Origin: an uncultured virus (IMG/VR IMGVR_UViG_2061766007_000712)
Lineage: Duplodnaviria > Heunggongvirae > Uroviricota > Caudoviricetes
DNA length: 52,511 nt
IMG/VR virus record: IMGVR_UViG_2061766007_000712
Strand: one strand, 5' to 3'
Position 1 is the first letter of the stretch. Each line of letters begins with the position of its first letter. This document shows, in pieces, positions 4,466 through 50,828 of the stretch. A program made the position numbers and the translations under genes. The notes under the pieces were generated by a model that worked only from the letters and a program-made list of their open reading frames with translations, searched no databases and was not told the origin of the DNA.

Positions 4466-6279
4466 TTAAGGTGCTACGTAATTCCATGCAACCAAAATCC
4501 CTTTTGAAAATCCTAACTGCCATACTCCACCGTTTTTATCTCTTATATTTATTCCACTTGGTGTGTCTTGTCCAGAATGATAACCTGTACCTGAACCCGG
4601 GTTTCCATAAGTTGATATACTTGTTAGACCTGATATTCCGGAACTTCCACCACAATTTATACCAGCCCAACCTACGTTTAGTCCACTTACACTTGGGTTA
4701 TCAGTCGTTAATCCCATTGTGAAGTAATAGCTTCCTTTATGTATATCAATGCTTCCACCTGTTACTTGAATTTTTGAAGTAACTAGTGATCCGTCATGTC
4801 CTACTCTAAATGGGGCTTGCGAACTTGTATCACTTCCAGCCCAGAAAGCATATTCTTGTCCTGAAGTTGAACACATACCAACTTGGCTACTTCCTGTTCC
4901 ACCTTTTAGTGAGTATTGGTCGATTACAAAGTTTCCGATTTTTCCACCTGTGGCTGTCATGTTTCCATCAGTATCTACTGCGAACTTGCCATTGATAGTA
5001 GTGTATCCCTCAAGTTTTATCTTATTGGCATTTATTGTGATTTCTTCTGGAGATAGGTTGATGGCACTGATTACTTCGTTTCTATTTACTTTCAATTCGA
5101 TTTCAGCAGTTGCTTTATTTACTTTTAATATTGCATTTTTTAAATCATTGTCAGTTAAACTTGCTGTCTTATAATCAGTTTCACTTGTATTTGGTTCTTC
5201 AGTATATGTTTTTTCACTGATTCCACTCGATAAATCAATTATATCATTTAACATTAAGCATTTTCTTTTACCACTTGTTAATGATCTTGCTTTAGCAATT
5301 CCACTTTTTACAATTCCACTCTTTAATGCGTGATAATCTTCACTCAATTCGAAATTATAAAAATCTCCAATGTCTAGGAACATTAAACCTGTTGTTTCAA
5401 CGTCCATTATATAGAATTCTAGTCCTTTTATTTTATTAAATATTNNNNNNNNNNNNNNNNNNNNNNNNNNTCAGTTCCACTTAATAATGGGTTATCACTA
5501 AATTTGATTTCAGTTAGTCCATAAGTAGCTATGCTTGTGTCATCTTTTCTATAAATATTATCAGCACCTTCACTTCTTGAAAGTACCAAACTATTTATTG
5601 GACCATACTTTTTATTAAAATCGACATTTAGATTTGATAAATAATCATTACTGAATGTTTCATTTGTTTCAGTAGGATATTTTATATCAAGTTCATCATC
5701 ATCATTTATTATAAACCAACCCGCAACTACTTGTGCTAAATAATCTAAAATATCTCTATATGTATAACTACCATTTTCGAAATTATCTTGTGAAATTTCT
5801 TTATTATAGTTTATAAATGTACTATTTTCTTTTGCAAATGTTAATCCACATTCTTCAGCAAGTGCTGTTATATATTCTCTAACATTTATAGGAAATATTA
5901 GCCCCACTGGTTTCTTATAATCGACCATTGTAAGCAACATTTTATCATAGCAAGTATATTTATATATTTTTGTATTTATGTCGTATTCTGGCTTGTCTTT
6001 TATTAAATAATTGCCATAATCTAAATATTCATAACTTCCATTTACTAATATTCCACTCTTTAAATTAAAAATTGGGTTATTAGTGATTCTCTCTTTTGTT
6101 TCAAATTCAAATGATTTCATTACGGTTTTAAATAAATCAGCATAAGTTGACTTATTTAAACCATAAATTTCATTTGAAGTTAATGTCTTTGTTACGCCAT
6201 CAATTGTATATTCTATTTTATTGTCAGCTTGTCTTATTCCAACTAAATTGTTTTTAAATGCGTTTGTATGAGTTCTCAT
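4466..6279 (-). CDS. Tail tip/baseplate protein, one gene split by an N gap
   Basis: The 283-aa and 313-aa ORFs align in sequence to the 965-aa protein at 43031-45928; after the gap the frame reads IFNKIKGLEFYIMDVETTG versus ILNRLNGLQYYLNDFSSTG. Confidence 0.75.
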
Positions 6280-6650
6280 AATTTATCATTTCCAACTAAT
6301 TCAAATTGAAATGGCAAGTGTTTATCAATGGCATAATAGTTTAATGCTAAATCTCCTTTGTGTGTTTTTATTGTTTTTCTTATTCCACTTGGATCATCAT
6401 ATACTACGGTTTGTTCAACCGTTCTAAAAATATTATTTGTAAGATAAATTAATTCTTGTTTTGTCAATGGTCGTATCTTTAATGTAAATTTTGGGTATGT
6501 TCCTTTGAATGTTCCTGTAAATTTACCACTATTGGTATTAAAACCAGCGTCACTCGACCAAGTATCATAGAAACCATATAATACTTCAGTCAAGTATTCG
6601 CCAATGCTTATTCCATTTATTATTAAACTATCTTTATCTATCGTAAACAT
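6276..6650 (-). CDS. Distal-tail-like protein
   Basis: Follows the tape measure gene; homolog of 45930-46313. Confidence 0.7.
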   Translation of the reverse strand: MFTIDKDSLIINGISIGEYLTEVLYGFYDTWSSDAGFNTNSGKFTGTFKGTYPKFTLKIRPLTKQELIYLTNNIFRTVEQTVVYDDPSGIRKTIKTHKGDLALNYYAIDKHLPFQFELVGNDKL

Positions 6651-6660
6651 TCTTTACCTC

Positions 6661-8319
6661 CTAACCACCATTTGTTGCAAAATTCTTCTGATTTGCTACT
6701 TTTGAAACTTGTCTTTGAATCAACTTGCCATCAAGATATACATTTGTTACATTACTTCCACCTGTATTTCCATATTTAGCAATTTCACTTGCTAATGTAC
6801 TTAAATATTCAGCGTTCATTGGAACTACTGCTTCAGCATATCCGGCTTCTCCTATTATTGCTCTTGTTGGTTGTGTTACAATTCCACCTGTTGCAAAGTG
6901 ACGACCACCAGTGCTTGAATAAGTGTTTCCAGAATGACCTACAAATTGTTCAGTAGTTTCTAATATTACTTGAATCTTATGTGGTTTTTGAGTTAATCGA
7001 TTAAGTGTTGTTTCTAAATCTTCATAACTTTTTTTAGCAATTAGTCCTTTATCACTTAATTTTTGTAAATCATCAGTCGCAAGTTTATATTCATCAGCTA
7101 ATATTTTTTGTTGTTTTGATAATTCTTTGTTTTTACCTGTCAATTCGCCAACAACGGTTTTTTGACCTTCTAATTTATCTATTTGCTTAACTATATCTTC
7201 TCTTGATTTCTTTAAATAATTAGCATAAACTTCAGTTTGCTCTGCTGTTGCTTTTCCTTCTTGTTGTAATTTCCAATATTGTTCTGATAATTGTTCAGCA
7301 CCTTTTTTATTATCATTCATTAATGTTGTATTGTTCTTTACAACTTCCATTAATTCTTTATATTGATTTATTGTTTCTTGAATTCCTTTAGCAACTAATG
7401 TTATTACATAAACGTCAGCAATTAATAATAATAAACTTGCAAGTCCAGCTAGTCCTTTTCCCACTGCTGTTGCTGTTCCTTTTGTGCCAATTAGTGTTCC
7501 TATGCTAGTTAATAAATTTTTAATTGCTATTGCACCAAATGTGATTCCAAGAGCAATTCCAACTGCTTTTACTAAATCTTCGTTTTGTTTTAACCAATAT
7601 GCTAAATTTTGTAATTTTTGTACTAAACCAGCGTCTAATTGTGGAATATCTATCATTGGACTTGATGATCCTCCACCTCTTGAAGTATCTTGTTGTGTTC
7701 TAATTACGTCAAAATCATATTGTTGAGTTTGTTTATTTAGATTTGCTTGTGCTTTTGCTTGTTTATCTAATGCTTTTGCATTGGCATTTGCTATAAAATC
7801 AACTCCTGTAAGTGCTTTTACGAATACATTGATATATCCTACTGCTTTTAGCATTAAGTCACTTACACGCCTTAATAATGGCTCTAGGAATGAGCCTAAA
7901 CCAACCCATACACTTTGTAATTTTTGTGCAAGTTCAGTGTCTTTTGATAAATATGCACTGCTAGCTTTACTTGCTAGTCCATATAATGAACTTACACCAA
8001 TAATTCCAAGTGCTAATCGTTTTAGTCCTTTTAGATTTATGTCCCAATGTTTAGAACTTTGTTGTTGCATTTTTCTTTGTTGTTCTGATAATCTTAAATA
8101 TTCATTAGAAGTTTTTTCCATTTCAAGTCTTATTCTTTTTAATGCTTCTTCATTTGGTGCAAATTGCTTTCCTGTTTCACGACTTACTTTTTCAGCATTT
8201 TCATATAATTGGTCGTATTCTCTTTGTAATTCTTCCAATTTATCTAATGCTCTTTCTAATTGAGCGTCATAACTTCTAGTATTCATATCTAAATCTATCT
8301 CTAATTTACCTCTATTCAT
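6661..8319 (-). CDS. Tape measure protein (552 aa)
   Basis: Helical, with hydrophobic segments; C-terminal FATGGIVTQPTRAIIGEAG.EAVVP motif; tail-module position. Confidence 0.85.
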   Translation of the reverse strand: MNRGKLEIDLDMNTRSYDAQLERALDKLEELQREYDQLYENAEKVSRETGKQFAPNEEALKRIRLEMEKTSNEYLRLSEQQRKMQQQSSKHWDINLKGLKRLALGIIGVSSLYGLASKASSAYLSKDTELAQKLQSVWVGLGSFLEPLLRRVSDLMLKAVGYINVFVKALTGVDFIANANAKALDKQAKAQANLNKQTQQYDFDVIRTQQDTSRGGGSSSPMIDIPQLDAGLVQKLQNLAYWLKQNEDLVKAVGIALGITFGAIAIKNLLTSIGTLIGTKGTATAVGKGLAGLASLLLLIADVYVITLVAKGIQETINQYKELMEVVKNNTTLMNDNKKGAEQLSEQYWKLQQEGKATAEQTEVYANYLKKSREDIVKQIDKLEGQKTVVGELTGKNKELSKQQKILADEYKLATDDLQKLSDKGLIAKKSYEDLETTLNRLTQKPHKIQVILETTEQFVGHSGNTYSSTGGRHFATGGIVTQPTRAIIGEAGYAEAVVPMNAEYLSTLASEIAKYGNTGGSNVTNVYLDGKLIQRQVSKVANQKNFATNGG

Positions 8320-8324
8320 TCAAT

Positions 8325-8891
8325 TCACTTCCTTTCTATCTTTGCTTGTTTATAGAACTCATTTACACTTCTTTCTTGTTCTTTTGTTCTCTTATGTTCT
8401 TTTGGTTTTAATGCTACTCTTTCTTTTGCTTTTATTAGTCCATTTCTTTTCTTTGCGTCATTTATTTCATTTATGTCCATACTTCTTATTTCTCTGATTC
8501 TACTTAATGCTGTATCTTCAGTTAAATTAGATATTAATTCATTGTATTCGTACCAACTTAATTTATCTATTTCTTCTGGTGTCATTTTATAACATTGTCT
8601 TATGCTTGATCTTATTACTGATTCATCTTGGAAATAGTCCATATCAATTTCATCTTGACTTGTATTTTCTTCACTACCACAACGCAAATATTTGGCAATT
8701 TTATCTTGAAGTAGCATTTCATCTTCTTCTAAAACGTCTGGTCCTAATAATAATGTTTCTATGGCAAAAAAGCGTTCTATTGGTGTTATTTCATCATCAT
8801 TTACTGCTTTTAAACAAGCAAGTGCCACTTTATAATTTGTATTAATTTTATAAATGTGTCCATTTGCTTCCATTTTTGTTGGGTATGCCAT
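8325..8891 (-). CDS. Gp15-family tail assembly protein
   Basis: INTNYK...MDYFQD...LSWYEY...IREIR pattern; lies before the tape measure gene. Confidence 0.75.
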   Translation of the reverse strand: MAYPTKMEANGHIYKINTNYKVALACLKAVNDDEITPIERFFAIETLLLGPDVLEEDEMLLQDKIAKYLRCGSEENTSQDEIDMDYFQDESVIRSSIRQCYKMTPEEIDKLSWYEYNELISNLTEDTALSRIREIRSMDINEINDAKKRNGLIKAKERVALKPKEHKRTKEQERSVNEFYKQAKIERK

Positions 8892-9341
8892 TTATATCAC
8901 TTCTTCATCTTTTGGAAGGTATTTTTCTGCAAGTTTTTCTTTACCTTTTCTTATTTGAAAATTCATTTTCTTAAAATGTGGTTCTAATGCTTCTAATAAT
9001 TTGAAATATTGCTTTTCAGTCTTTCTATTTCCAAATATTTTTTCACAAGTGCCTTCTCCTAAAAAACTATCAAATAATTCTCTTTTCTTTTTATCTACTC
9101 TACTACTTAATTCGATTAATCTTCTTGCTTGTTTTACTGAATTCGTTTCTTCAGTCATTATTCTTTCTTTTTCTTCTTCTTCTTCAAGTGCTAACTTTTC
9201 TAATTCATCTCCTGCACTCATTATTCTTTCAGCAAGTCCAATGTCAGCTAAATCGAATTCAATATAATTACCATTATCATCTATTTCTAATTGATAAAAG
9301 TCATTCTCATCTCTTGTGTTATCTAATACTAATTTTTCCAT
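8892..9341 (-). CDS. Tail assembly chaperone
   Basis: Likely start MEKLVLD at 9341 (AAGGAG RBS); FDSFLGEGTCEKIFG motif; follows the major tail gene. Confidence 0.7.
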   Translation of the reverse strand: MEKLVLDNTRDENDFYQLEIDDNGNYIEFDLADIGLAERIMSAGDELEKLALEEEEEKERIMTEETNSVKQARRLIELSSRVDKKKRELFDSFLGEGTCEKIFGNRKTEKQYFKLLEALEPHFKKMNFQIRKGKEKLAEKYLPKDEEVI

Positions 9342-9361
9342 TTTTCTTCTCCTTTTAAAAT

Positions 9362-9392
9362 AAAAAGGCATAGGTGTTGCCACCTACACCTT
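9362..9392 (-). terminator. Intrinsic terminator after the major tail gene
   Basis: AAGGTGTAGGTG-GCAA-CACCTATGCCTT followed by T tract. Confidence 0.75.
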
Positions 9393-9399
9393 AATAGTG

Positions 9400-9885
9400 T
9401 TATAAACTAACTACTGCACTTGATTCAGTGAATGTAGGAACTCCATCTGTAATTGTTGCAGTACCGATTTTTGGTGTACCATTTACTGCTATTGAATATG
9501 AAATTGTTGCGTCATCTCCTAAAAAGCTACTAATAGTAATTAATACTTTATAAAGTAATGCGTCGTATGAACCACTATTTTCAGTTGTCATATCAATTTC
9601 TAGGAATTCAGTTTCTCCTGCAATACAATGTTTTCTTAAATAGTTTAAATAAGCCCACATAGGATCAGTTTTTTCAATTCTCTTATTTTGAATACTTGAA
9701 GTTATTGAATAACTCTTGAAAGTATTGTTTGCAACGTCATCAAGAATTGATTTGAAAGTATCAATTTCAGAGTTGTAGTCAAGTGCTAATGATTCAACAC
9801 CAATACCTTCAATTGTGAATTCTTCAGTATCTCCACTTAAATGTGTATCTACATAGTGAGCAAAGTCTTTTCTTTTAGCTTGCAT
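9400..9885 (-). CDS. Major tail (tube) protein
   Basis: Tail-module position; homolog of 49337-49831; ends ...AVVSL. Confidence 0.8.
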   Translation of the reverse strand: MQAKRKDFAHYVDTHLSGDTEEFTIEGIGVESLALDYNSEIDTFKSILDDVANNTFKSYSITSSIQNKRIEKTDPMWAYLNYLRKHCIAGETEFLEIDMTTENSGSYDALLYKVLITISSFLGDDATISYSIAVNGTPKIGTATITDGVPTFTESSAVVSL

Positions 9886-9904
9886 ATTCTACCTCCTTCG
9901 TAAT

Positions 9905-10363
9905 TTATAAACTTATTGATGATTCGTGATTACCATCATCATAGTATGTTATTTGTATTTGAATGTCGAATTCTGCTGAATTAGTTTCTGAATTATTCAT
10001 TGTTCCACGATCCAAACATTCAATACTATCTATACCATTTATATCAGGCTTTATGCCTTTGTTATTATTAGATTCGATTATATCTTCAAATTTTTCAAAA
10101 AAACCCATTGTTTTTAGATTTGTTTTGGAATCTTGTCCGTATGGAAGTCGTCCCCTAAATGAGTAAACTTCTTTATAAATTCCACCACCAATTATATATG
10201 GAATAACAACTCTTTCAGTTGGTATTTTATCAAGACTATAATTGTCTATTTTATTTGATAAGAAATTTGCATTGATTTGGTTTACACTTCTAATGTTATT
10301 TATTACTTCGAATAAATAATCTCTTAATTTACCTATTCTAGTATCTTTATAATCTTCTTCCAT
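9905..10363 (-). CDS. Tail terminator/completion protein
   Basis: Immediately upstream of the tail tube gene; homolog of 50022-50483; ends ...SSISL. Confidence 0.7.
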   Translation of the reverse strand: MEEDYKDTRIGKLRDYLFEVINNIRSVNQINANFLSNKIDNYSLDKIPTERVVIPYIIGGGIYKEVYSFRGRLPYGQDSKTNLKTMGFFEKFEDIIESNNNKGIKPDINGIDSIECLDRGTMNNSETNSAEFDIQIQITYYDDGNHESSISL

Positions 10364-10704
10364 CAGTTTCTACCTCCACGTACTATTTCGTTTTTTACTA
10401 CTCTTAATACTTCATCTTTCTTTGCTGTCCACATTCTATAATCCCAATATGGTCCAGTACCTGCTGTTGTATATTTTCTTACAGGTCCTGTTGTGTAACC
10501 AACATATTGAGCATGAGCATAAGGAGATTCATAAACGATTTTTTTGGGGTTACTTAAATCAACATTAGTTCTCAAGTCCCCTTGATCCATTGGAACAAAT
10601 CTATCCATTGCTTTATAACAAGCGTCTTGGAATACTCTTTGTATTCTTCTATTTGGTTCTATTCCAAATTGTCTTTTGATTTCTCTTATATCAATAATTG
10701 ACAT
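10363..10704 (-). CDS. Neck protein ('minor capsid' family)
   Basis: MDRFVPMDQGDLR...YESPYAHAQY...GPYWDYRM motif. Confidence 0.8.
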   Translation of the reverse strand: MSIIDIREIKRQFGIEPNRRIQRVFQDACYKAMDRFVPMDQGDLRTNVDLSNPKKIVYESPYAHAQYVGYTTGPVRKYTTAGTGPYWDYRMWTAKKDEVLRVVKNEIVRGGRN

Positions 10705-11057
10705 TATTTTCCACCTAAATGTACGTGTGGATTATTTCCAAAAGTATTATTTTTTATACTTATAACATTATAAATGTCATAGTCTTTTAAATCTTCTTGA
10801 GTATTTATTTCAGTTTCTAAAGTGCCTTTTACAATAATATCTCCAATTGCCAAATCTTTAATATCTAGTCCTTCATTAAGACTATATGGTATACGCACCT
10901 GTACGTCATTTGCATTGTCGTATCCTTTGTCTATTCCGGCACCTTTACCACCAAAAAACCATACTTTATCATAATTGTGTCTTACCCATATTTCTTCGTG
11001 TGTTGTTAAATCTAACCCACTCATGTGATAAATAGTTAAACTTGAATTAGTAATCAT
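10704..11057 (-). CDS. Head-tail adaptor/closure protein
   Basis: MITNSSLTIYH...; highly similar to 50829-51185. Confidence 0.75.
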   Translation of the reverse strand: MITNSSLTIYHMSGLDLTTHEEIWVRHNYDKVWFFGGKGAGIDKGYDNANDVQVRIPYSLNEGLDIKDLAIGDIIVKGTLETEINTQEDLKDYDIYNVISIKNNTFGNNPHVHLGGK

Positions 11058-11464
11058 TACTTAACTCCACAATATAAAATGTGTTCTCCATTAATTATAA
11101 CTCCTGTTAAATAAGTGTCTATTGTATTCATTAATTCAATATTCTTTGAACTTACAACTTCACTTATTTTATCAGCAGTAATATAACTAATTGAATAACC
11201 ATCTATGCTTTCACTAGCAACATTTCCATTGCTAGAAGTATTGCTAGTAGAATTAGCATAGTTATTAATACTATTTATCAAAGCATATTCACAAAGTTTT
11301 ACTTCTTGTGGTATTTCTTCGCTGTTCTTTACTCTGTTAAAGGTTTTTACGTCAATTTGTCGTCTTGCTTCAAATTCTAATAGATTAAAAGGCATTTCGC
11401 CAATTTCAGAACCACCTAAAGTTAAATATTCTTGATAGGTTAAGTATTGTCCTTCAAATGTCAT
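11057..11464 (-). CDS. Head-tail connector
   Basis: YLTYQEY...ARRQID...SESIDGYSISY; directly after the capsid gene. Confidence 0.8.
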   Translation of the reverse strand: MTFEGQYLTYQEYLTLGGSEIGEMPFNLLEFEARRQIDVKTFNRVKNSEEIPQEVKLCEYALINSINNYANSTSNTSSNGNVASESIDGYSISYITADKISEVVSSKNIELMNTIDTYLTGVIINGEHILYCGVK

Positions 11465-11481
11465 AAAATGCCTCCTTTATA

Positions 11482-12399
11482 TTATAAACTTACTGTTCCT
11501 TCTGGTTTTAATGAAGCGAATGGGAAACGAGTTTCAGTTTCGTTTTCAGCATTTACTGGGTTTGGAATTTCCCAACCAAGTCTCATAGTTACACGTAATG
11601 CAACCATGTCATCTTGTGCTAGGTTATATAAGATAGAACCGTCACTTGGATCTTGAATAACTGCTTCAGTTAATACTTTATAAGTTATATCATTTCTAAT
11701 TGCATATACAGCTTGTGAGAAGTCTCCTGCAATTAAAGTTGATTTAGTTTTGTCCCAAGTACCATTATCTAGGAATGTTCTATTTAAACTTCCAATTTCA
11801 GTTGTATTTAATGGTTGACCGTTCTTGTCAGTCATCATACGGAATTTACCTTTAAGTCCAACACCACCAAGTAAACCTGTTACGTTATAACCACTTTCTT
11901 CAACTTTAGTCATAACGTCGTTAATATCAGAATATAAGTTTCCTGTTTCATCAACTTCAGCACCTACTTCTTGAATTGAAGGAATTAAACCTTTTCTCCA
12001 GTCAGTTGGTTTACCAACACCATTGAAGATAGCGTCGTCAATTTTACGACCAAATGCTTCAACTAATCTTGGTTTTACTTGAGCCCAAATATCAATATCT
12101 GAATCAGCTAAATCGTTTTCTTTTATAGGAACGATTACAGCAATTTCAGCCGCATTGATAAATTTCTTGTCCCAAGCAACTTTTGTTAAATTTTTTCTAC
12201 CATTGTCTTGTGTTTCATCTACGAAATAAGCAATTGGTAGTGAATCTAAAATACGTAATTTTGTTTTGTCACTTGTCATGTTTGGTAGTCGTCTAAACAT
12301 TGAAAGTGCTTTTGAATCTCTAACTACTCCTTCAAATATTTCACTTGCAACTTGAGTTTCAATTAGAGCGTCAACGTCATTTCTACTAATTTTTGTCAT
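11482..12399 (-). CDS. Major capsid protein (HK97 fold), copy 1
   Basis: AYFVDE...EIAVIVPI...IDDAIFNG...GDFS...QDDMVALRVTMRLG; follows a scaffold gene. Confidence 0.9.
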   Translation of the reverse strand: MTKISRNDVDALIETQVASEIFEGVVRDSKALSMFRRLPNMTSDKTKLRILDSLPIAYFVDETQDNGRKNLTKVAWDKKFINAAEIAVIVPIKENDLADSDIDIWAQVKPRLVEAFGRKIDDAIFNGVGKPTDWRKGLIPSIQEVGAEVDETGNLYSDINDVMTKVEESGYNVTGLLGGVGLKGKFRMMTDKNGQPLNTTEIGSLNRTFLDNGTWDKTKSTLIAGDFSQAVYAIRNDITYKVLTEAVIQDPSDGSILYNLAQDDMVALRVTMRLGWEIPNPVNAENETETRFPFASLKPEGTVSL

Positions 12400-16356: not shown

Positions 16357-16473
16357 ATAATATCTTCTCCCTTCGCTTTTTTTCGTGGTCTCGTCCACGT
16401 GTGAATCGATAAAGTTCTCTCGAACTCTATATAAATTATACCATAAAAATAAAAAAGTGCCAAATTGACACTT
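16357..16473 (-). promoter_or_regulatory. Terminator-overlapped sigmaA promoter and structured leader of scaffold 2
   Basis: TTGGCA(16458-16463)-17 bp-TATAAT(16435-16440); leader is homologous to 12900-12975. Confidence 0.75.
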
Positions 16474-17194
16474 ATTTTTTAGTTTTTTTTGTTTTCTTTT
16501 CTTGTGTATGTTCCTTAATTTTATCAATTCCAACTAGCATAACTGCATTGTTTTCTCTTAAAAACTCATATCTTTCTTTAGTACAATTCCAAACACTAAC
16601 ATTTGCAGTTCTAGGTGTATCTGTTCCTGCTTCTGTTTTCTCTGCCGTATCATTAAAGTTAATAATTGCTTTTACTACATAATTTTTCATTTCTTCCTCC
16701 TTTATATAATATCCATATTGATAATTTTTAAAAATACATTTTAAATATGCGTATCTTTGTTTCATAATTTCATCTGTTAAATCACTTTGTTTATGTATTT
16801 CATATACATTGTCTTCTTCAATACCTTGTGGGCTTAAATAGGGCACTGCAACTATCATAAACTTGCACCTGTCATAAGCATATTTTAAGACTTTTTGAGC
16901 ATCTTTTACATCTAAGTGTTCAATTATATCTCCAAATATAATTATGTCGTAGTAATCGTACTTAAAATCTCTTATGTCGATGTTATATACCTTTTTATAT
17001 TTTTCTTCTAAATGAAAGTTATCAATATTTGGTTTAAATATTTCTACTGCCTCTATATTTGTAAAATAATCTTGTAAAAATGGTAAGTAAGTACCTTCTC
17101 CTGCACCTACGTCTAATATACTAGCCTTTTTAGTAAAAAGTTCTTTTAAATAATCAGTAATTTCTTTTTTATATATTGCGTATGATGTTGCCAT
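16472..17194 (-). CDS. Class I SAM-dependent methyltransferase with a small C-terminal extra domain
   Basis: ILDVGAGEG motif I; YDIIIFGDIIEHL; TAATG-coupled to the glycosyltransferase; internal AAGGAGG-ATG at 16690. Confidence 0.85.
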   Translation of the reverse strand: MATSYAIYKKEITDYLKELFTKKASILDVGAGEGTYLPFLQDYFTNIEAVEIFKPNIDNFHLEEKYKKVYNIDIRDFKYDYYDIIIFGDIIEHLDVKDAQKVLKYAYDRCKFMIVAVPYLSPQGIEEDNVYEIHKQSDLTDEIMKQRYAYLKCIFKNYQYGYYIKEEEMKNYVVKAIINFNDTAEKTEAGTDTPRTANVSVWNCTKERYEFLRENNAVMLVGIDKIKEHTQEKKTKKTKK

Positions 17195-18924
17195 TATATT
17201 TGTTGATACTCCTTTTTTGTAAGTTCTTTCCACTGCTTATCAAATTTCATTTGAACCCATTGCTTATATTTTTCATTTTTAGTATTTGCTATAAAATAGT
17301 ACATTTCTCCAAGATGTTTATAAATAGACATTTCCCACATTGCCTCACGTTTTGTTGTTACACTTGTAGTATTACTTCTATTCCATACATGAGTAGATTT
17401 GTTTAAACAAGTAAAACTATTTGATTTTTCGCATATTCTATAATGATGTACTCTATCTTCGGCAAGTGTACTTTCAGGGAATAATGTATCTTTTAATATT
17501 TCGGATTTTACAACCTTAGTCCATATAGCACATACATCATTAATAAATGCCTCATACATTGTTTGATAGTTTGGTCTAAATGGGAATAAATCTTCTACAC
17601 CATCTTTGTATAAATCAAATCCCAAAAACATTACATCTTCATCTTCTAAATTATCATTTATTTCTTGTAATGTGTTTTCATTTTTTAAATGGTCATCACT
17701 ATCTAAACAAACTATATAATCTCCCGTTGCTTCCATTATTCCAATATTCCTAGTTCCACCATTATATTTTTTATAAGGAACTTTCAATACTTTATGTGGT
17801 GATTTTAACATTTTATTTGCTATTTCAAGTGAATTATCTTCACTCATATCATCTATAAATATAATTTCATAATTTTTATAAGTTTGATTTAACACACTAT
17901 TTAAGCAACCTTCAAGCCATTTTGCATTGTTATAGTTTGGAATAATAATACTAAACTTATAATTTTTCTTTTCTATTGGTTCGATTAGTTTTAACCACTC
18001 TTTTCCATAATCAGGGTATTCATATTTAAAGCCTTTTTTTAAATTTTCTATTATATCTAAATCTAAATTAGACAAATCTTTTTTTACTACATACCCTTTT
18101 CCATCAGTTAATTCTTTTATAGCATTTGGGAAATCAGTACATACGCAAGGTGTTCCTAATATTAAACTTTCATACATTACCATACATTGGCTTTCATAAT
18201 CACTTAATTGCCACAAACTATCAGCCCATGCCATGTATTTGTAAGGATTATCTTGTTTGCCTTCCCATATTACGTTGTAATCAACTAATTCTTTTTTAAG
18301 ATTTTCACTATATTGTGGATATAAATAGCAACTACCAACTATTACAAATTGATAATCTTTGCCATGTCTTTCTTCACATTTGTCTAGTACTGCTTTTAAT
18401 CTAGGAAAACCTTTTTGTGGGTCTATTCTACTTACTATTAAAAAATTATGTTTTTTCTTTGGTATATCAACTTTTTCTTTTGCTAATTCTTTTATTTCTT
18501 CAGTATCAATAATGTTTGGTATAACAATGCAATCTTTACCTTTTCGTTCTTTAAATTGTTTTCTTGCTTCTTCTGATACTGCTACATACTTTTTAAATGG
18601 TATAACTTCTTCATAATTTTCGTTGCTATCAATTAAACATCCATTTATTACTTGCACATAGTTATTTTTCCTAGCTTTTACTTTTTTTAAATTATAAACA
18701 GCATCGTATATAACATAGTCAAACGTTTCATTTTCACACATATCAATATGTTTTACATTTCCTATTGTAGCCCATTTTTCTAACATATCAAGTGGACTAT
18801 CTACACTTGCAAATACAAAAGTTATATCATGTCCTTGCTCTGCTAGATATTTGCCTCTAGCAAACATTGTCTTTTCTACGCCACCGGTTTCAAATGGTCT
18901 AGTATAATACATCGCAATTTTCAT
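17194..18924 (-). CDS. Bifunctional glycosyltransferase (GT-B/GT4-like plus GT-A/GT2)
   Basis: GGVEK, VSRIDPQKG, SDYESQCMVMYES (GT-B); SIIIPNYN, IDDMSED, CLDSDD (GT2); likely start MKIAMYY at 18924. Confidence 0.9.
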   Translation of the reverse strand: MKIAMYYTRPFETGGVEKTMFARGKYLAEQGHDITFVFASVDSPLDMLEKWATIGNVKHIDMCENETFDYVIYDAVYNLKKVKARKNNYVQVINGCLIDSNENYEEVIPFKKYVAVSEEARKQFKERKGKDCIVIPNIIDTEEIKELAKEKVDIPKKKHNFLIVSRIDPQKGFPRLKAVLDKCEERHGKDYQFVIVGSCYLYPQYSENLKKELVDYNVIWEGKQDNPYKYMAWADSLWQLSDYESQCMVMYESLILGTPCVCTDFPNAIKELTDGKGYVVKKDLSNLDLDIIENLKKGFKYEYPDYGKEWLKLIEPIEKKNYKFSIIIPNYNNAKWLEGCLNSVLNQTYKNYEIIFIDDMSEDNSLEIANKMLKSPHKVLKVPYKKYNGGTRNIGIMEATGDYIVCLDSDDHLKNENTLQEINDNLEDEDVMFLGFDLYKDGVEDLFPFRPNYQTMYEAFINDVCAIWTKVVKSEILKDTLFPESTLAEDRVHHYRICEKSNSFTCLNKSTHVWNRSNTTSVTTKREAMWEMSIYKHLGEMYYFIANTKNEKYKQWVQMKFDKQWKELTKKEYQQI

Positions 18925-18940
18925 TTTATCACCTAGAATA

Positions 18941-18981
18941 ATTATATCATAACAAGCAAAAAAGGACAAATTATGTCCTTT
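18941..18981 (-). promoter_or_regulatory. Terminator of the accessory operon overlapping the glycosyltransferase promoter
   Basis: AAAGGACA-TAATT-TGTCCTTT plus T tract; TTGTCC-17 bp-TATAAT with TG extension. Confidence 0.7.
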
Positions 18982-19336
18982 AATCAATTTTCCAAGCACA
19001 TCGCATTATTCTTTCACTTGGATTAAATGTATCATATATAATGCCATCTATAATAGCAGTTATATGACCATTGATTGTTACTGCATATTTTCCATAGGGA
19101 TATTCTTCAGCAAATTCTCCTATTGTTTTTGAATAATGACATTCTCTTGGGTATCTATCATCTAAATAGTCTTCAATAAATACTACACTATCCATCATCA
19201 AACTATCTTCATTTGCTAATGTACTTAATTCTTCATAAACATCATGCCAATCTCTATTTGTCAATAAAGATATTGCCCTCAAAGTGCAATCATCAATATG
19301 CCTGTTATGTGGATTATTATTATAATATCTATACAT
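18980..19336 (-). CDS. Conserved phage protein with Cys/His/Asp, possibly a papain-like peptidase
   Basis: NNNP...DDCTLRAIS...GHITAIIDG..YDT. Confidence 0.7.
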   Translation of the reverse strand: MYRYYNNNPHNRHIDDCTLRAISLLTNRDWHDVYEELSTLANEDSLMMDSVVFIEDYLDDRYPRECHYSKTIGEFAEEYPYGKYAVTINGHITAIIDGIIYDTFNPSERIMRCAWKID

Positions 19337-22162: not shown

Positions 22163-22233
22163 ACTTATTGCCTCCTTCTAGTTTTAATTTTATTACTTTA
22201 TTTGTGCTAAAACGTGTCAAAAAAAGAATAGTT

Positions 22234-23505
22234 TTAACTATTCTTTAATTCTTTTAAATATTCCATTTTCATGTGCCTTAATCTGTCTGTTGAATATTTA
22301 TATTTGAAATGTAATTGTACATAATTCATTTTGTTGCAATAAAAATCCACTAAAAATTCAGTTTTATATTTGTCGAGATGTTTTAACTCACATATTTCTC
22401 TTAATTCACTTTCAGATATACCTTTGTATACGTCCTTCGTCATATATTTAACTAGTAGTGCAGTATAATAGGACATACATACTCCAATTAAGATTGGTAC
22501 TAAATACGATGTACCTATCGGAAGTGTAAGTCTTGAAATAAAGTAATATGAAATATTAGAAATAATAAAACACCAAAACGCACTTTTTAAATGTAATGCT
22601 TTACCAAACTTACCTTTATTGAATAAAAATGCAAACATTACAAATAGCATTGTTATAACTACGTTATTTATTTGTGCTATAAATATTATTAAAATTATTG
22701 TAAGTACATTCCAAAATAAAGTCAGTAGATAATATATGCTTAAAAAGGCGATATTATCTATTTTATCTCTTGTTTTCGATTTCAAGACCTTTTTTATAGT
22801 ATTTAACTGCTTCTTTAACCCATAAATAAGGTGTTTTAACGATTCCAAGAATAAAACCGGCAATTGCGTAAAGCCATGCCAAAGGTCCAATAATAAACCA
22901 ACAACCATCTCCCATAAATCTTTAACCTCCTTCCTTTCAAAATAATAGTAATAAAATAATAATAACACAATTATGTAATCTATATCAAAAATTATATTTG
23001 TTATGAATTCATTAATATTATGCCAAGCATCTATGTTTTTACAATATAGTGTTATATGTTGAAAAAATACATTTACAAATATATAAATTATAATATTTTT
23101 CAATGTGTGTTTTACTTTTTTTGTATAAACAATAGGGGGTATAATCATAAAAAATACTTCTAGTACCACTTTTAATGGTGGTATTAATGTTTTTATATAG
23201 TTTGTAAAAAACTTAAATGGAATACCTATCAAAGTCACAATTAAAGCATATATTTTCATTTGTTTTGAATTATCTTTACAACTTACACTTAATATCATAT
23301 AAGTATAAATGTATAATGTTATAGAGTACCATATATTTTCCAATCCATGACTTACAACAAATTTGGCGAACTTGTTTATCATGTTGTTGTCATATTTAAT
23401 CCCAAAATAATCAATATTGATTATTTTTAATAATACTATCACAGAAATTATGACAAAATATGTCAAAATTGTTCTAATACACACTTTACCAAAATTTTTA
23501 TTCAT
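22234..23505 (-). CDS. Multi-pass membrane protein with an AgrB-like peptidase motif and a C-terminal HTH
   Basis: Many TM helices; KGKFGKALHLKSAFWC has AgrB-like H-x6-C spacing; the C-terminal ~60 aa resemble sigma region 4. Confidence 0.7.
   Translation of the reverse strand: MNKNFGKVCIRTILTYFVIISVIVLLKIINIDYFGIKYDNNMINKFAKFVVSHGLENIWYSITLYIYTYMILSVSCKDNSKQMKIYALIVTLIGIPFKFFTNYIKTLIPPLKVVLEVFFMIIPPIVYTKKVKHTLKNIIIYIFVNVFFQHITLYCKNIDAWHNINEFITNIIFDIDYIIVLLLFYYYYFERKEVKDLWEMVVGLLLDLWHGFTQLPVLFLESLKHLIYGLKKQLNTIKKVLKSKTRDKIDNIAFLSIYYLLTLFWNVLTIILIIFIAQINNVVITMLFVMFAFLFNKGKFGKALHLKSAFWCFIISNISYYFISRLTLPIGTSYLVPILIGVCMSYYTALLVKYMTKDVYKGISESELREICELKHLDKYKTEFLVDFYCNKMNYVQLHFKYKYSTDRLRHMKMEYLKELKNS
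22763..22915 (-). CDS. Nested 50-aa peptide (AgrD-like candidate)
   Basis: AAGGAGG RBS; MGDGCWFIIGPLAWLYAIAGFILGIVKTPYLWVKEAVKYYKKGLEIENKR; different frame inside 22234-23505. Confidence 0.6.
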   Translation of the reverse strand: MGDGCWFIIGPLAWLYAIAGFILGIVKTPYLWVKEAVKYYKKGLEIENKR

Positions 23506-23524: not shown

Positions 23525-23600
23525 AAAAAAAGATACTGTTTCTAGTATCTAATCCAACCCCTTAGTTATTGATTATAAATTATTAAGGATTACAAGTCAA
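23525..23600 (-). promoter_or_regulatory. sigmaA promoter with a leader terminator upstream of the 423-aa gene
   Basis: TTGACT(23595-23600)-17 bp-TATAAT(23572-23577); AGATACT-loop-AGTATCT plus T tract before the RBS. Confidence 0.7.
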
Positions 23601-42810: not shown

Positions 42811-43031
42811 TATTTATCACTCTCTCTTTCTAATTTAGTAACATTTTCTTCTAATGTTTTGTTGTATTTTTTTAATTCAGTTTCATACTCTTGTTTTTCT
42901 AATAATTCTAGTTGCATCAATATTTTTTCTATTGTTGGTTTTAACACAAATGCTGGTATTTCACATTTATTGATTACATCAACAATTTGCTGCTCCGTTT
43001 CTTTTAATTTTATTATTGTTGGTTTTTCCAT
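42810..43031 (-). CDS. Small tail-module protein
   Basis: Homolog of 4240-4443. Confidence 0.75.
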   Translation of the reverse strand: MEKPTIIKLKETEQQIVDVINKCEIPAFVLKPTIEKILMQLELLEKQEYETELKKYNKTLEENVTKLERESDK

Positions 43032-45928
43032 TATTTTTCCTCCAATTTATTTATTTTTTGCTGTAATGCTTTACAGACAACTAATAAATATTTTATTAAT
43101 GTTTCTTCATCGTATCTTTTAAAGTTTATTATTGGCAAATTTTCTTTATTTTCTTCGCCAGCAAAATAGTCTAAATAATTATTTTTGTTTATTCCTGCTT
43201 TTTCATCTTTAAAGTAGAAAAATTTATCTGCTAATTTATTATCTAATAAATCATCGATCATAAAACCGAATTGGTCTTTTTTAGGATGTATATTATATTT
43301 ATAATTGTAATCGTACAATTTTATTTCATCTAGTAATGTTAAAGCGTCATTATATTCACTTTGTTTAAATTCTTCAATATTTGTTTTCAAACATCTTGAT
43401 GAAGGTCCACTACTTGATGTTGCTGCTCTTGCATTTCCTACATTAGCATTTCCAATATAAACATAATGGTCGTACGCAGCGTTTATTGTAATGTGTGCAG
43501 AAGCATACATATATATACTTCCTGGGTTAGTCCCATATCCTGTTCTTCCTCCTGTTGCTATTTGTAAATATCCTCCAGGTTTAATTTGATTTGTTTTAAA
43601 CACACCATAAACAATTGCATCTCTATCTACTTCTAAATCACTAGTTGCTGTTATATAAGGTGTGTTAATTCCCCCAGCAAAAGTAAATATGTTACCATCA
43701 CTATTAAAACCAAGATTGCTAATATTAATTCCAGCACCACCTGTTACGTTTAAACCAGATACATTTACGTGTGTAGTATTTGCTCCTGCTGATAAATAAC
43801 CGCCACCATTAGTGTTAATGTTTATTGTTCCACCAGAAATTCTATCTCCACTCAAGGTTCCAGAATTTATCTGGTCAGCACTTATATTTTGAGCAGATAA
43901 GTTGTCTGTTGTTATTACACTACTATCTACTTGTGATGCAGTTATAGTTCCTGTTGTGATTTTGTTTCCATTAATCGTTGTTGTAGTATCATTATTAATT
44001 GCATTTATAACACCATTTATATTTACTTTGTTTGCTTGAATAGTTGCTGTTCCTGGTGCTAAATTAATGCTAGAAAATATATCTTCAGTTCTGTTTCCAT
44101 TTTCATCAAACCCAATTATTCTTCTTCTAACTTCTAAATTAATATCTTCTGCTGTTTGATTGATAGCACTATTCATTTCAACTCTTGTTGCAAATTGTGT
44201 AGTGTAAATATTACTTGCCATTAATCTTACCATTATGCAAGCATTGTTATAACCTAATAAACAAACTGTATAACTTCCTGTTCCTAAATTAATTGTAGGA
44301 TATGGGTCTATATCAATGACTTGTGGTGTTGATAATAAATCAACAGTTCCATCACTATTATACACACACTTTTTTGTTACATTACACGTATGGCTATCAT
44401 AATCTAAATAAAATTCATCATAGTTGTCTTGGTCATAGTACAATAAATCGTAAGGCAATTCATAATCTATTATTTGTGTTTTTTGTACTCCTTCCTCGAC
44501 ATAACTTCTTGTAAATCTTAATGTTCTTCTTTTTAAGAATAAATTAGTGCTTGGGAATAATCCACTATTTGGATATAAATAACTTATATTCTCTCCAATA
44601 GGATGTATCTTAATTTGTATAGGTTCGCTTTCATTGACACCATCCAATTCAACTTGTGCATCAGTATCTTCAGCACTTACTGTTATATCTGCAATATTGC
44701 TTATTTTAGCGTTTAATTCATCTACTGTTTGTGTTATTTGCGATATTTTATTATCTTGTTCAGTTACATTCGTTACAACACTTTCTATTACTTGATTTTG
44801 CTTATCTACAATAAAATATGTTTGGTTTATTCTTCTATCTGTTTTATCGCTCTTTGTGTAATCTGTTTCACTTTCTTCTGGCAAATCAGTATATACATTT
44901 TCTTCCAAACCTTGCGTTATATTTATTTCATCATTAAACATTATACAAGAATAAACATCTTCACCAATTTGAATATTGTACCTGTCACACATATCATAAT
45001 ATGTAATACCTGTACTAGAAAAGTCGTTTAAATAGTATTGTAAACCATTTAATCTATTCAATATGTCTGTTAAATAGGTATCTCTATCGTTCCCATTCAT
45101 TATTTGATTATTGGCTATTTCTATTGCTTTTCGTTGGTCTTCTGGCAAATCATCAGGATAAGACTTATATATTTTGTCTGCCCCTGCTCTTGACAACACA
45201 ATTGTGTTTACTGTGCCATACATTTCACCAAATTTTACATTAACATCTTTTAAATATTCTGCATCTATTGTATCGCCAGTATCATTTATATATCTAATTT
45301 CAAGTTCATCATCATCATTAATACAAATTGTACTTGCTGTTACTTGTGCAAGTTCATCTAGCACATCTCTAAATGTGTATCCAAGCGAATTGCCTTCACT
45401 ATCCAAATATAATTCTGTTGCTATTTGTTTGTCATAATTTGCAAAAGTATCGTTTAAATTCGCAAAATCTAAGCCTAAATGAGTACAAATAGCATTTATA
45501 TAATTTCTTACTGTTATTGGATAAGTTATATTCATTGATTCATAATCAACCATAGAATATAACATTTTATCATAACAAATAATATTATAACTATCTACAT
45601 CTTCTTGCTTTTCAACTTCTTTAACAATATAATTTCCAAAATCTATATAATCATAATTGTCTCTATAATCTTCAACTTCATTATATCTTGTTTTAACACC
45701 AAATTGATAATTGATAATTGTTCCAACAGGTATTTCAACATTACTATCTATTTTTAATTCTTTCATAGCAGATTTTAATATAGCACTTTCATATATAGGA
45801 GAAACAGAGTTAAGTGCTTCATTCCCTAATATAACTGTTTCCCCATTATCGTCGTATGTAATTATGCTATCTAATTCTCTACCAAAAAGTTTTACATTTT
45901 CTTTAAATGCGCTTGTATGTGCCTTCAT
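43031..45928 (-). CDS. Tail tip/spike protein with a C-terminal intramolecular chaperone (S74-like)
   Basis: Beta-helix-like ITTGTITA repeats; SSRCLKTNI cleavage-type motif; FGFMIDDL; C-terminal coiled coil. Confidence 0.8.
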   Translation of the reverse strand: MKAHTSAFKENVKLFGRELDSIITYDDNGETVILGNEALNSVSPIYESAILKSAMKELKIDSNVEIPVGTIINYQFGVKTRYNEVEDYRDNYDYIDFGNYIVKEVEKQEDVDSYNIICYDKMLYSMVDYESMNITYPITVRNYINAICTHLGLDFANLNDTFANYDKQIATELYLDSEGNSLGYTFRDVLDELAQVTASTICINDDDELEIRYINDTGDTIDAEYLKDVNVKFGEMYGTVNTIVLSRAGADKIYKSYPDDLPEDQRKAIEIANNQIMNGNDRDTYLTDILNRLNGLQYYLNDFSSTGITYYDMCDRYNIQIGEDVYSCIMFNDEINITQGLEENVYTDLPEESETDYTKSDKTDRRINQTYFIVDKQNQVIESVVTNVTEQDNKISQITQTVDELNAKISNIADITVSAEDTDAQVELDGVNESEPIQIKIHPIGENISYLYPNSGLFPSTNLFLKRRTLRFTRSYVEEGVQKTQIIDYELPYDLLYYDQDNYDEFYLDYDSHTCNVTKKCVYNSDGTVDLLSTPQVIDIDPYPTINLGTGSYTVCLLGYNNACIMVRLMASNIYTTQFATRVEMNSAINQTAEDINLEVRRRIIGFDENGNRTEDIFSSINLAPGTATIQANKVNINGVINAINNDTTTTINGNKITTGTITASQVDSSVITTDNLSAQNISADQINSGTLSGDRISGGTININTNGGGYLSAGANTTHVNVSGLNVTGGAGINISNLGFNSDGNIFTFAGGINTPYITATSDLEVDRDAIVYGVFKTNQIKPGGYLQIATGGRTGYGTNPGSIYMYASAHITINAAYDHYVYIGNANVGNARAATSSSGPSSRCLKTNIEEFKQSEYNDALTLLDEIKLYDYNYKYNIHPKKDQFGFMIDDLLDNKLADKFFYFKDEKAGINKNNYLDYFAGEENKENLPIINFKRYDEETLIKYLLVVCKALQQKINKLEEK

Positions 45929-45929
45929 A

Positions 45930-46313
45930 TCACACTCTCCTACTTACTGCTATAAATGAACAACTAAACCCTTGATTTTTTTTACCATTTTCTATTACTG
46001 TTTTATTAGATATTTCATAATCACCTGTATATGTTGACATTGTTACACTTGCTTGTTTGTTAGGATCATAATATGTAACAGTTTGTCTTGCACTATCTAA
46101 TATAGGTATTATTATTTCAAGTTCTTCTTTTGTTAGCTTTCTAAACTGCAATATTATTTTGGGGAATATTCCTACGAGAGTTCCGCTTTGCGTTCCTGCT
46201 AAATTTCTTCCACTATCACTAGACCATAATTTGTTGTATCCATATTTTGCTTCTACTAAATATTGACCCATTGATACTTCATTTATTACAATACTATCTT
46301 TGTCTATAAACAT
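45930..46313 (-). CDS. Distal-tail-like protein
   Basis: LWSSDSGRNLAG...YYDP...YTGD. Confidence 0.75.
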   Translation of the reverse strand: MFIDKDSIVINEVSMGQYLVEAKYGYNKLWSSDSGRNLAGTQSGTLVGIFPKIILQFRKLTKEELEIIIPILDSARQTVTYYDPNKQASVTMSTYTGDYEISNKTVIENGKKNQGFSCSFIAVSRRV

Positions 46314-46324
46314 TATAACACCAC

Positions 46325-48178
46325 CTATCTATTAAATGCAAAATCACTATCGCCTTTAACAATTTGTAATTGTCTGCTTATAGTTCTTCCATTCATTTGA
46401 TTTATTACTGTTACTGGTATAGTTACATTTCTGCCTATTGCTTCTCCTAATGAACTCATAACTTGCGCATCAGTTAATGGCAAGTATGCTTCTTGTCCTG
46501 CCTCAGCCCATTGAGCGCCTCCGCCAACTGTTGGTATGCCACGTCCTGGATAACTTGCTATTGCTCCTTTTGCTAATTTTGGTATTTCAGGTATAGGTAG
46601 TGGGTCTTGTTTCCATAGTCCCTTAAAAGGGTACACACCCAAAACTCCTGCATTTCTAATTGTATTAAGTAATCCGTTTATTCCCTTAAAAGGTAATGAT
46701 ATAACCCAATTTATACCATCTATCAAAGCATTTACTATTGTTTTAAATACATTTAAAATTCCTTCACCAATTCCTTTAAATATTTCTCCACCTTTTGAAA
46801 ATGAGCCAACTATGAAATCCCAAGTCTTGACAAAAGTGTCTTTTATTCCATCCCATAAATCTGTAAAAAAGTCTGCTACTGGTTTTATAACATTGTCATA
46901 TATCCATCCAGCAAACGCACTAAATATTCCTTTTATAAATTCCCAAGCAATAGATAAACCTGTTGTTATTACTTCCCATAACCACACAAAAAAGTCAGCA
47001 ACTTTTTTTATTATGTTTTCATATATCCACTTCGCTACACCTTTTAGCGTGTCAACAATTTTGTTCCAATTTTTAACTATTACTAACACTAACGCACCGA
47101 CAAGGCCTATAATTAAAGTTATTAATGCTGGTACCCCACCAAATATTACTAAAACTCCTCCTGCTACCAAACCTATTCCCATTAGTACTGTGAGAAAATT
47201 ATTCCAAGTTGGGTCTTTTAAATAATTTATTACTCCACGAATTGTTGTAATTACACCTTCTACTATTAAAACTGTTCCTATTATTGTTTTTTTGTGTTTT
47301 ACAATAAACTTACCTATTGGTGTTAGTTTGGTTCCTAAATCTGTAATATCTTTTATTAAACCTCCTAATTTTATAAGTCCTATTGCAGTCGCAATTCCCA
47401 CTAATGTTCCAATTATAATTTCTCTATTATCTGCTATCCATTGTATCCATCCAGGTACTTCCATACTTTCTATATTAGATAAATCAAAACTTGGAGCAAC
47501 AGCAGTATCTCCACCACCACTTGTTGATGTGTCTTGTAAGACGTTCATTTCATCAAAACCAGATAATTGATTTTTTAATTCTTTTGCCTGTTTATTAGCA
47601 CCTTTTAAGTTCTTATTGGCATTTTCAAATATATTTTTACCTGTCCACGCTTTAATTATATAACCTATATACATTAAAAGCGTTTTTACAAAATCTACAA
47701 TTCTTCTGACTATTGGTTCTACTACACTTACTAATGCTGCCTTTATATAATCTATATCTGCTTTTAATTGCGGGTCGCTTTCTGATAAAGTGTTTATAGC
47801 GTTTCTTACAAACATATAGGCACTTCTAACGCCAAATATTGCTAATGCCCATTTTGCTACCTTTTTAGTTACTTTATCTAGTCCTTTACCTGCATTTTGT
47901 AGTCCTTGTTCAAATTGTGTTGGTGCGTTATCTAAATCTTTTTGTCTTTTCCTTAAATCTATAAGCTTATTAGAAAGTTTTTCTGCTTCCACTTCCAATT
48001 TTGCAATATCTGTTGTAGTTAAGTTATACGCTTTCGGGTCGCTCAGCATCTTATCTATTTCTTCTAATCTTCCCTCCATTGCATCAATTTGCTTATCGAA
48101 CCCTTTATTATCAATTTTAGTTTCAATTACAATTTCGCCATCTGCAAACTTCTGTATATTTAATTTCATTTTTTTCAT
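46325..48178 (-). CDS. Tape measure protein (617 aa)
   Basis: LSGFDEMNVL; Trp/Phe-spaced repeats; IPKLAKGA...EAGQEAYLPL. Confidence 0.9.
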   Translation of the reverse strand: MKKMKLNIQKFADGEIVIETKIDNKGFDKQIDAMEGRLEEIDKMLSDPKAYNLTTTDIAKLEVEAEKLSNKLIDLRKRQKDLDNAPTQFEQGLQNAGKGLDKVTKKVAKWALAIFGVRSAYMFVRNAINTLSESDPQLKADIDYIKAALVSVVEPIVRRIVDFVKTLLMYIGYIIKAWTGKNIFENANKNLKGANKQAKELKNQLSGFDEMNVLQDTSTSGGGDTAVAPSFDLSNIESMEVPGWIQWIADNREIIIGTLVGIATAIGLIKLGGLIKDITDLGTKLTPIGKFIVKHKKTIIGTVLIVEGVITTIRGVINYLKDPTWNNFLTVLMGIGLVAGGVLVIFGGVPALITLIIGLVGALVLVIVKNWNKIVDTLKGVAKWIYENIIKKVADFFVWLWEVITTGLSIAWEFIKGIFSAFAGWIYDNVIKPVADFFTDLWDGIKDTFVKTWDFIVGSFSKGGEIFKGIGEGILNVFKTIVNALIDGINWVISLPFKGINGLLNTIRNAGVLGVYPFKGLWKQDPLPIPEIPKLAKGAIASYPGRGIPTVGGGAQWAEAGQEAYLPLTDAQVMSSLGEAIGRNVTIPVTVINQMNGRTISRQLQIVKGDSDFAFNR

Positions 48179-48193
48179 ATAGTCATCTCCCCT

Positions 48194-49272: not shown

Positions 49273-49336
49273 TTTATACTCTCCTCTCTTTCTAAATTAA
49301 AAGGGCAGGGTCTATGCCCCACCCTTATAGGTTTTA

Positions 49337-50827: not shown

Positions 50828-50828
50828 A

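Follow-up and report, generated by a model that had tools for sequence, protein, structure and literature searches.

A peptide gene hidden out of frame in a phage AgrB-like fusion gene probably specifies a leaderless AgrD-like precursor

In the staphylococcal and clostridial agr systems, an AgrB-family membrane protease with a His-x6-Cys dyad (PMC10482373, PMC8251862) acts on a small precursor, AgrD, in which a Cys or Ser nucleophile and the hydrophobic residues behind it are followed by a C-terminal follower. The chemistry, as described in PMC10482373, PMC8251862 and PMC4979651, proceeds by cleavage behind the core, an acyl-enzyme and closure of a (thio)lactone. According to PMC10482373, canonical AgrB requires an N-terminal amphipathic leader on AgrD, and the AgrB1 and AgrB2 proteins of Staphylococcus aureus did not process Ser-containing AgrD. 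In Enterococcus faecalis, the propeptide of the Ser lactone GBAP is encoded by fsrD, which lies within an annotated agrB-like ORF (fsrB) and is translated separately; in PMC7028047, fsrD shares the reading frame of fsrB and occupies its 3' end, whereas the review PMC3673130 gives a different frame. Phage-borne agrB and agrD homologs are described from the agr3 locus of the Clostridioides difficile phage phiCDHM1 (PMC4124054), and an N-terminal core with a C-terminal follower is described for bottromycin-type RiPPs (PMC4979651).

The locus described here resembles each of these systems in part. It shares with agrB/agrD the protease family, the dyad and the small precursor, and its peptide family has cores similar to CWFWSY, the core of clostridial Rc-AIP1. 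Unlike agrB/agrD as described in those sources, its peptides have no 24–25-aa leader and would need no second cleavage, their amphipathic helix is C-terminal, and the nucleophile is mostly Ser and in some cases Thr. The AgrB part is missing roughly the final third, the locus has no AgrC kinase, and it adds a further membrane domain and a helix-turn-helix (HTH); the phage form is fused, with the peptide gene nested. Like fsrD, the peptide gene lies inside an agrB-like ORF, but in frame +2, upstream of the AgrB domain and in the middle of a three-domain fusion, and the locus differs from Fsr, with its FsrC kinase and FsrA regulator. phiCDHM1 has three separate genes including an AgrC kinase, whereas the present cassette is kinase-free and HTH-bearing, with the peptide gene hidden. 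The enzymes and chemistry of bottromycin-type RiPPs are unrelated. The locus would work like agrBD biosynthesis and is outside canonical agr by its leader, AgrB length, kinase and receiver. Full-text literature searches that covered few subscription journals turned up nothing that describes a leaderless AgrD, this fusion or the operon presented below; families of autoinducing peptides (AIPs) listed in the supplements of PMC11953309 and PMC13056109 could bear on this novelty.

The window, by which we mean the whole stretch of 52,511 nucleotides analysed, is part of a virus record with terminase, minor capsid and holin-like genes around the cassette, and bovine and goat gut metagenome runs contain near-identical DNA; no RNA run turned up among them, which carries no information on expression. 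The host gene and its parts are as follows.

22234..23505, minus strand: host gene, 423 aa, with membrane domain, linker, shortened AgrB and HTH (from Pfam, homologs and a structure model).
22936..23505, minus strand: N-terminal membrane domain, about residues 1–190; a separate gene in split relatives, and a candidate receptor or AgrB partner.
22468..22749, minus strand: AgrB-like domain, residues 253–346, with His305 (22593–22591) and Cys312 (22572–22570).
22237..22434, minus strand: C-terminal HTH resembling sigma70 region 4 and LuxR, about residues 358–423; a separate 81–93-aa gene in chromosomal operons.

Residues 253–346 match Pfam AgrB with an E value of 1e-5 (25.5 bits, cut-off 23), and the same family matches most of the full-length or C-terminal homologs tested and four of four chromosomal genes. 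The match in the window spans model positions 19–111 of 185, so that about two helices are missing; homolog matches stop near position 102–140, mostly 111–120, short of the six-helix length, and stand-alone chromosomal AgrB-like proteins have 144–160 aa. All 46 DNA-derived AgrB domains, a set that includes two canonical AgrBs, keep the H-x6-C motif, whose spacing equals that of S. aureus His77/Cys84 (PMC10482373); among 114 database proteins, 107 have H-x5/6-C. The fused protein is modelled as a single confident fold (pLDDT 92.6, pTM 0.86), an earlier model built on 27 close sequences having been unusable (pLDDT 50). An assembly fusion as the origin of the 423-aa ORF was rejected: 22 of 26 close homologs have 392–451 aa, the other four being shorter, and many distant ones have 380–440 aa. 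The UniProt entry A0A8S5R960 (virus sp. cti5L29), compared as a BFVD protein model, matches over its whole length of 429 aa (E 7e-12, TM 0.54) and is a member of the same fused family; its name, "Accessory gene regulator B", is an automatic annotation.

For the N-terminal domain, Pfam, NCBIfam, PHROG, PDB-sequence and Atlas searches gave no usable assignment (Atlas 0.79–0.81, below the lead threshold). An hhalign comparison with AgrC sensors, for which the profile comprised just two AgrC-like proteins, gave a probability of 0.4%, and a weak search returned neither a kinase fusion nor a longer fusion of this domain. Foldseek of the host model against the PDB gave no match at E 0.001, and no match came from a single-protein scan of viral contigs, a close-alignment search of genome contigs or tblastn against GenBank phages. 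VIA-align rows are dominated by the HTH and say nothing about the membrane part. Genome matches (82 of 399 and 48 of 151, with two genomes unscored) are mostly weak HTH-only matches and were left uncounted.

The linker between the membrane domain and the Pfam AgrB match contains, in frame +2 of the host gene, the ORF and signals listed here.

22763..22915, minus strand: nested peptide gene, ATG at 22915–22913, 50 codons, TAA at 22765–22763; long subclade of putative leaderless AgrD-like precursors (sequence and homologs).
22926..22938, minus strand: ribosome-binding site (RBS) of the nested gene, GAAAGGAAGGAGG, with a 10-nt spacer to the ATG; the host frame reads E-R-K-E here, and an RBS-like motif also precedes the peptide ATG in homologous loci.
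22904..22915, minus strand: predicted exocyclic tail MGDG, role inferred; 1–8 residues in the family and highly variable.
22889..22903, minus strand: predicted ring core CWFII, from the family pattern, with ring size by analogy.
22766..22888, minus strand: predicted follower, 41 aa, a hydrophobic stretch and then an amphipathic charged helix; the top 19-residue hydropathy, 2.17, starts at residue 8.

The RBS, the ATG and the 50-codon out-of-frame ORF quoted in the first-pass annotation are present in the DNA exactly as given there. Its argument from chance, made for fifty open codons behind a perfect RBS, needs one correction, in that open codons by themselves are no rarity: a stop-free run of 57 codons occurs elsewhere in the same frame of the same gene. 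When synonymous codons of the host protein were resampled, the 50 codons stayed open in 1085 of 20,000 trials, and in 18 of 20,000 when an ATG and AGGAGG were required as well. The 57-codon run and the resampling rule out open-frame length as proof of the gene; what decides the matter is the comparison with other loci. Such chance runs also speak for a different view, in which the ORF is vestigial, left from an ancestral peptide gene, or simply results from the codons of the host linker, and has no function in this phage.

We examined 58 loci (the window plus L001–L058, minus one duplicate), five of which (L035, L040, L045, L047 and L054) end or begin outside the junction. A peptide ORF with RBS and ATG is kept at the junction in all 53 loci that cover it, down to 32% host identity; 49 were found by script directly in frame +2, and those of L030, L042, L051 and L056 by reading the loci. 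As a control, 50,610 nt of 42 host genes held one other alternative-frame ORF of at least 22 aa with RBS and ATG. The check proposed at first annotation, that frame, RBS and ATG be kept in homologs, thus came out positive, as did that for altered variation in the host frame, which has the codon-position signature of an overlapping gene. Variability in the overlap peaks at host codon position 2, the wobble position of the nested frame: three long-type loci give 0.31, compared with 0.17 and 0.09 in their flanks, and 39 short-type loci give 0.45, compared with 0.36 and 0.22. In pairwise comparisons, which are non-independent, pN/pS is 0.25–0.53 for the nested frame and 0.65–1.51 for the host frame, and the same signature appears in the host protein alignment as V/A/G/D, L/S, H/R and T/M exchanges over the overlap.

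Near-identical strains from four runs, each a single low-depth contig, carry eight changes in the ORF, five of them silent in the nested frame and all five altering the host protein; the other three are two Ile/Val exchanges and one stop read-through. Outside the ORF, 15 of 22 variants in these low-depth contigs are host-silent. The nested stop is read through in one strain variant and in several relatives, leaving the exact C-terminus loose. Judged from these comparisons, the nested ORF is under selection that favours it over the host frame. Purifying selection in the window's subclade and in the near-identical strains largely refutes the vestige explanation, against which the perfect RBS and the independent gene calls that exist for five close relatives also count; we give that explanation hardly any weight and regard the nested ORF as almost certainly a real, translated gene. 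Over host residues 197–242, and in short-type loci such as L003 and L019, both overlap frames encode lysine/leucine-rich helices, so the peptide follower doubles as a host linker helix.

A census of 75 loci or proteins yielded 68 distinct peptides. These were anchored on the most hydrophobic four residues before Ala, Gly or Pro, which fixes the final column by construction and leaves the preceding column free. Position 0, immediately before the hydrophobic four, is Ser in 53 peptides, Cys in nine, Thr in five and Gly in one (L091), and the four core residues are mostly Trp, Phe, Leu and Ile, with Phe (51), Ile (9), Trp (4) or Leu (4) in last place. Only 1–8 variable residues precede the nucleophile position in all 68 peptides, none has the AgrD-type N-terminal amphipathic leader of about 24–25 aa, and in every one follower amphipathicity exceeds that of its shuffles. 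An NCBIfam scan of three short peptides and the window peptide gave no AgrD-type match. Typical members have 22–34 aa and a lysine-rich amphipathic follower. The window peptide belongs to a subclade of 50–54 aa (100/100 on the tree), in which position 0 is Cys in five of eight members and Ser in three. The charged follower comes right after the ring in short members, whereas members of the window's subclade first have about 17 hydrophobic residues. Among close relatives, tail and core vary strongly and the follower is conserved.

The Cys had been put forward as the conserved feature, and this was rejected with only nine Cys among 68; from the alignment, what is conserved is a side-chain nucleophile. 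As position 0 is mostly Ser or Thr, most family members would make a lactone. The first annotation had also stressed that the Cys motif precedes a hydrophobic helix, with no leader: the core-first order stands for the family, whereas the hydrophobic helix is restricted to the 50–54-aa subclade. A five-residue ring, CWFII, is predicted by analogy with AgrD; Pro stands right after the predicted cut in seven of 68 peptides for a five-residue ring and in 17 for a six-residue ring, and is avoided by a four-residue ring. L091 (42–212 of G441) is a divergent 56-aa peptide upstream of an AgrB-HTH gene, with an aromatic core that lacks Ser, Cys and Thr; closure through its N-terminal amine is a possibility.

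Does the AgrB-like domain act on this peptide? We consider it likely that the peptide is a substrate cyclised by that domain, mainly because position 0 swaps among exactly Ser, Cys and Thr; the AgrD-like substrate reading of the first-pass annotation gains support, at the level of sequence, from the census and the conserved catalytic dyad. Points against are that the family has no leader and mostly Ser, that AgrB is short and that L091 is without a nucleophile. The missing leader and shortened AgrB, with the Pro behind the predicted cut in some members and the one member without a nucleophile, would suit an unprocessed small membrane subunit or regulator, whose Ser, Cys or Thr serves as a helix cap or sits in the active site like a pseudo-substrate. 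Such a subunit seems quite improbable to us, given that the dyad is retained almost everywhere and that Ala, Asn and Asp, all of them acceptable in a helix cap, do not occur at position 0.

The same components occur in several arrangements. Besides the fused gene with the nested ORF, as in the window, there is a three-gene phage form (L048–L056) with a membrane gene, a 22–26-aa peptide gene that overlaps the 3' end of the membrane gene in frame +2, and an agrB-HTH gene with its own RBS. Chromosomal operons, found in genomes that share the class of a Bacilli MAG, consist of a membrane gene, a peptide gene, an agrB-like gene, an 81–93-aa HTH-like gene and usually a LytTR gene; the peptide gene is free-standing in several of them (for example L065, L066, L119 and L128) and end-overlapping in others. 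Beyond the 53 junction loci, the peptide gene is linked to agrB in 13 chromosomal split operons. A chromosomal case of the fused, nested form (L129) adjoins genes that by eye resemble cold-shock and ribosome-hibernation genes. In a fourth arrangement, the fused 452-aa gene of L130 (667–2174, G482) has no nested ORF, and a peptide gene of the same pattern lies 60 nt downstream; the linker motif is also missing from P0058, P0066, P0067 and P0082, which may resemble L130. Finally, P0139 and P0171, for which only proteins are available, seem to have a Met-started peptide-like segment in frame at the C-terminus of the membrane domain, recalling fsrB-fsrD. In an AgrB-domain tree of 46 rows, which leaves out distant fused proteins lacking DNA and whose root is unsure, all 29 fused forms group together (98/96), with split forms outside and canonical AgrBs on long branches. 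By this sequence-based comparison, split-to-fused is the simpler order: the fusion would have come about by read-through over the peptide gene in a split arrangement of membrane gene, peptide gene and agrB-HTH gene. P0110 and P0113 point to fusion and splitting as recurrent events.

A LytTR gene follows 11 of the 13 chromosomal split operons, being absent in L127 and not seen in L125. Pfam confirmed LytTR in four of four proteins tested (E 1e-13 to 3e-20), with no receiver domain at E 0.1 in any of the four, and the operon LytTR is the sole LytTR match in each of four draft genomes. The four chromosomal loci read over 15 kb have housekeeping flanks and no phage genes. No kinase was found within about 7 kb in these four, nor did the 28 most frequent clusters of neighbouring genes at 60 phage-type loci include one, and AgrA, a phosphorylatable receiver plus LytTR, is absent from the window. 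Each of the four draft genomes, which are incomplete, has one HATPase_c_5 match, by eye an ordinary OmpR-paired or sporulation-type kinase. In the operons L063–L066 and L119–L129, a common TTGCG-like direct repeat lies at -35, 30–90 nt upstream of the membrane gene, with a GG-(A/T)8-CC near-palindrome just upstream; repeat and palindrome are possible LytTR or HTH sites.

We propose the following route. A single mRNA would give the 423-aa protein and, through internal initiation at the nested RBS, the 50-aa peptide. Its C-terminal helix, as the hydrophobic moment suggests, would replace the N-terminal leader as membrane anchor. By analogy with AgrB chemistry, Cys312/His305 would cut behind the hydrophobic core to form an acyl-enzyme, which Cys5 of the peptide (Ser or Thr in most relatives) would attack to give a thiolactone or lactone. 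As the core starts 1–8 residues from the initiator Met, no second cleavage of the MroQ or SpsB type is needed, and the likely product would be (f)MGDG-cyclo[CWFII]. More tentatively, sensing of this product might need no phosphorylation, with the N-terminal membrane domain as the simplest receptor; transcription would then be changed by the attached HTH, or in chromosomes by the separate HTH gene and the LytTR protein, and in phages the conserved downstream cluster would be a plausible target.

That the peptide is a leaderless AgrD-like precursor cyclised by the AgrB domain of its own host gene, in a kinase-free agr-like circuit, is the account we favour, with moderate confidence. For an extracellular signal read by the same cassette the balance is even. 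The peptide could instead be processed by the AgrB-like domain and send no signal between cells. The precursor or the cyclic product would then act within the producing cell or its membrane, where it could inhibit or switch the membrane-tethered HTH, for instance, or be active on the membrane itself. This would fit a locus with no kinase and no identified receptor or exporter, extremely hydrophobic cores, a transmembrane-like follower in the long subclade and one mRNA that gives both peptide and enzyme. Variable tail and core beside a conserved follower in close relatives are, however, what specificity-bearing signals would be expected to have, and the chromosomal operons end in a gene of agr's regulator class, LytTR; we judge same-cell action unlikely. 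The fullest form of the circuit, in which one host gene makes the signal, senses it through a new receptor domain with no phosphorylation and acts through its own HTH, is doubtful, if somewhat less so. If it is true, gut phages would have a lactone-based counterpart to arbitrium that either derives from the kinase-free chromosomal operon of uncultured Bacilli or is common to both.

Signals around the host gene could bear on its expression and targets.

23572..23600, minus strand: promoter-like site TTGACT-17-TATAAT, 11/12, a consensus match only; similar in many phage homologs.
22219..22246, minus strand: terminator-like hairpin and T run over the host stop codon, -8.8 kcal/mol for 22250–22212; like hairpins follow most homologs.
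22204..22219, minus strand: imperfect 10-bp-period repeat TGACAC/TAGCAC ahead of the downstream gene cluster, a candidate HTH operator; weak in the window (p 0.195).

The stem of the terminator-like hairpin is AT-rich, so a general signal scan did not flag it. A 10-bp-period repeat follows the terminator in the 34 phage-type loci tested, with imperfect shuffle nulls (one breaks T runs, the other scores "no pair" as -9). Across L004–L058, head-to-tail repeats of TTGTAT, TTATAC, TTTTAC or TGACAC type lie 20–60 nt past the host stop. Repeat type roughly tracks the HTH recognition helix (partial correlation 0.17, p 0.02, given the protein body), non-significantly so when the rest of the HTH is also controlled (0.12, p 0.07). 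From the sequence alone, the repeat as an HTH operator is a lead. Between the promoter-like site and the host RBS, a hairpin with a T run occurs in the window (23570–23520) and in L001, L002, L004, L010, L011, L019, L020, L023 and L058, possibly an attenuator or the terminator of the preceding gene.

Downstream, at 22131–18980 of the window (minus strand), conserved genes of 178, 71, 274 and 118 aa surround a masked gap, each present in 33–39 of 60 loci; the cluster matches PHROG 16490 and 3754, both without assigned function, and is a candidate HTH target. A similar cluster lies elsewhere in the 117.5-kb record (G000, about 43274–44945). An 81-aa gene resembling a second HTH, with no PHROG match, follows the fused gene in 14 of 60 loci (e.g. 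L030 5301–5546). Between the cluster and the capsid genes, at 16472–18999 (minus strand), lie a two-domain glycosyltransferase gene (GT1 and GT2) and a gene that by eye is methyltransferase-like. The record as a whole seems to mix parts of more than one phage and is possibly joined or chimeric: its tail and head modules are repeated (window 4466–12399 versus 43031–52474; 72.7% identity over 1.6 kb, 86% over 1 kb), a pair of minor capsid genes are alike, and it contains 4,929 N.

The locus contains, as far as its sequence and homologs tell, a real hidden gene, with putative agr-type peptide biosynthesis and probably kinase-free wiring. AgrB would have here a family of substrates, as yet unannotated, whose precursor order is reversed, with the core in front and no leader; a single enzyme step would do in place of two, which would make such precursors easy to test and to put to use in producing cyclic peptides. 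Gene callers and AIP-mining pipelines that seek AgrD leaders would miss such peptides, above all nested ones. For the evolution of overlapping genes, the peptide genes, free-standing, end-overlapping, fully nested in a fusion or relocated, offer a clean natural series. Should the cassette prove to signal, gut phages and uncultured Bacilli would have a phosphorylation-free agr-like route.
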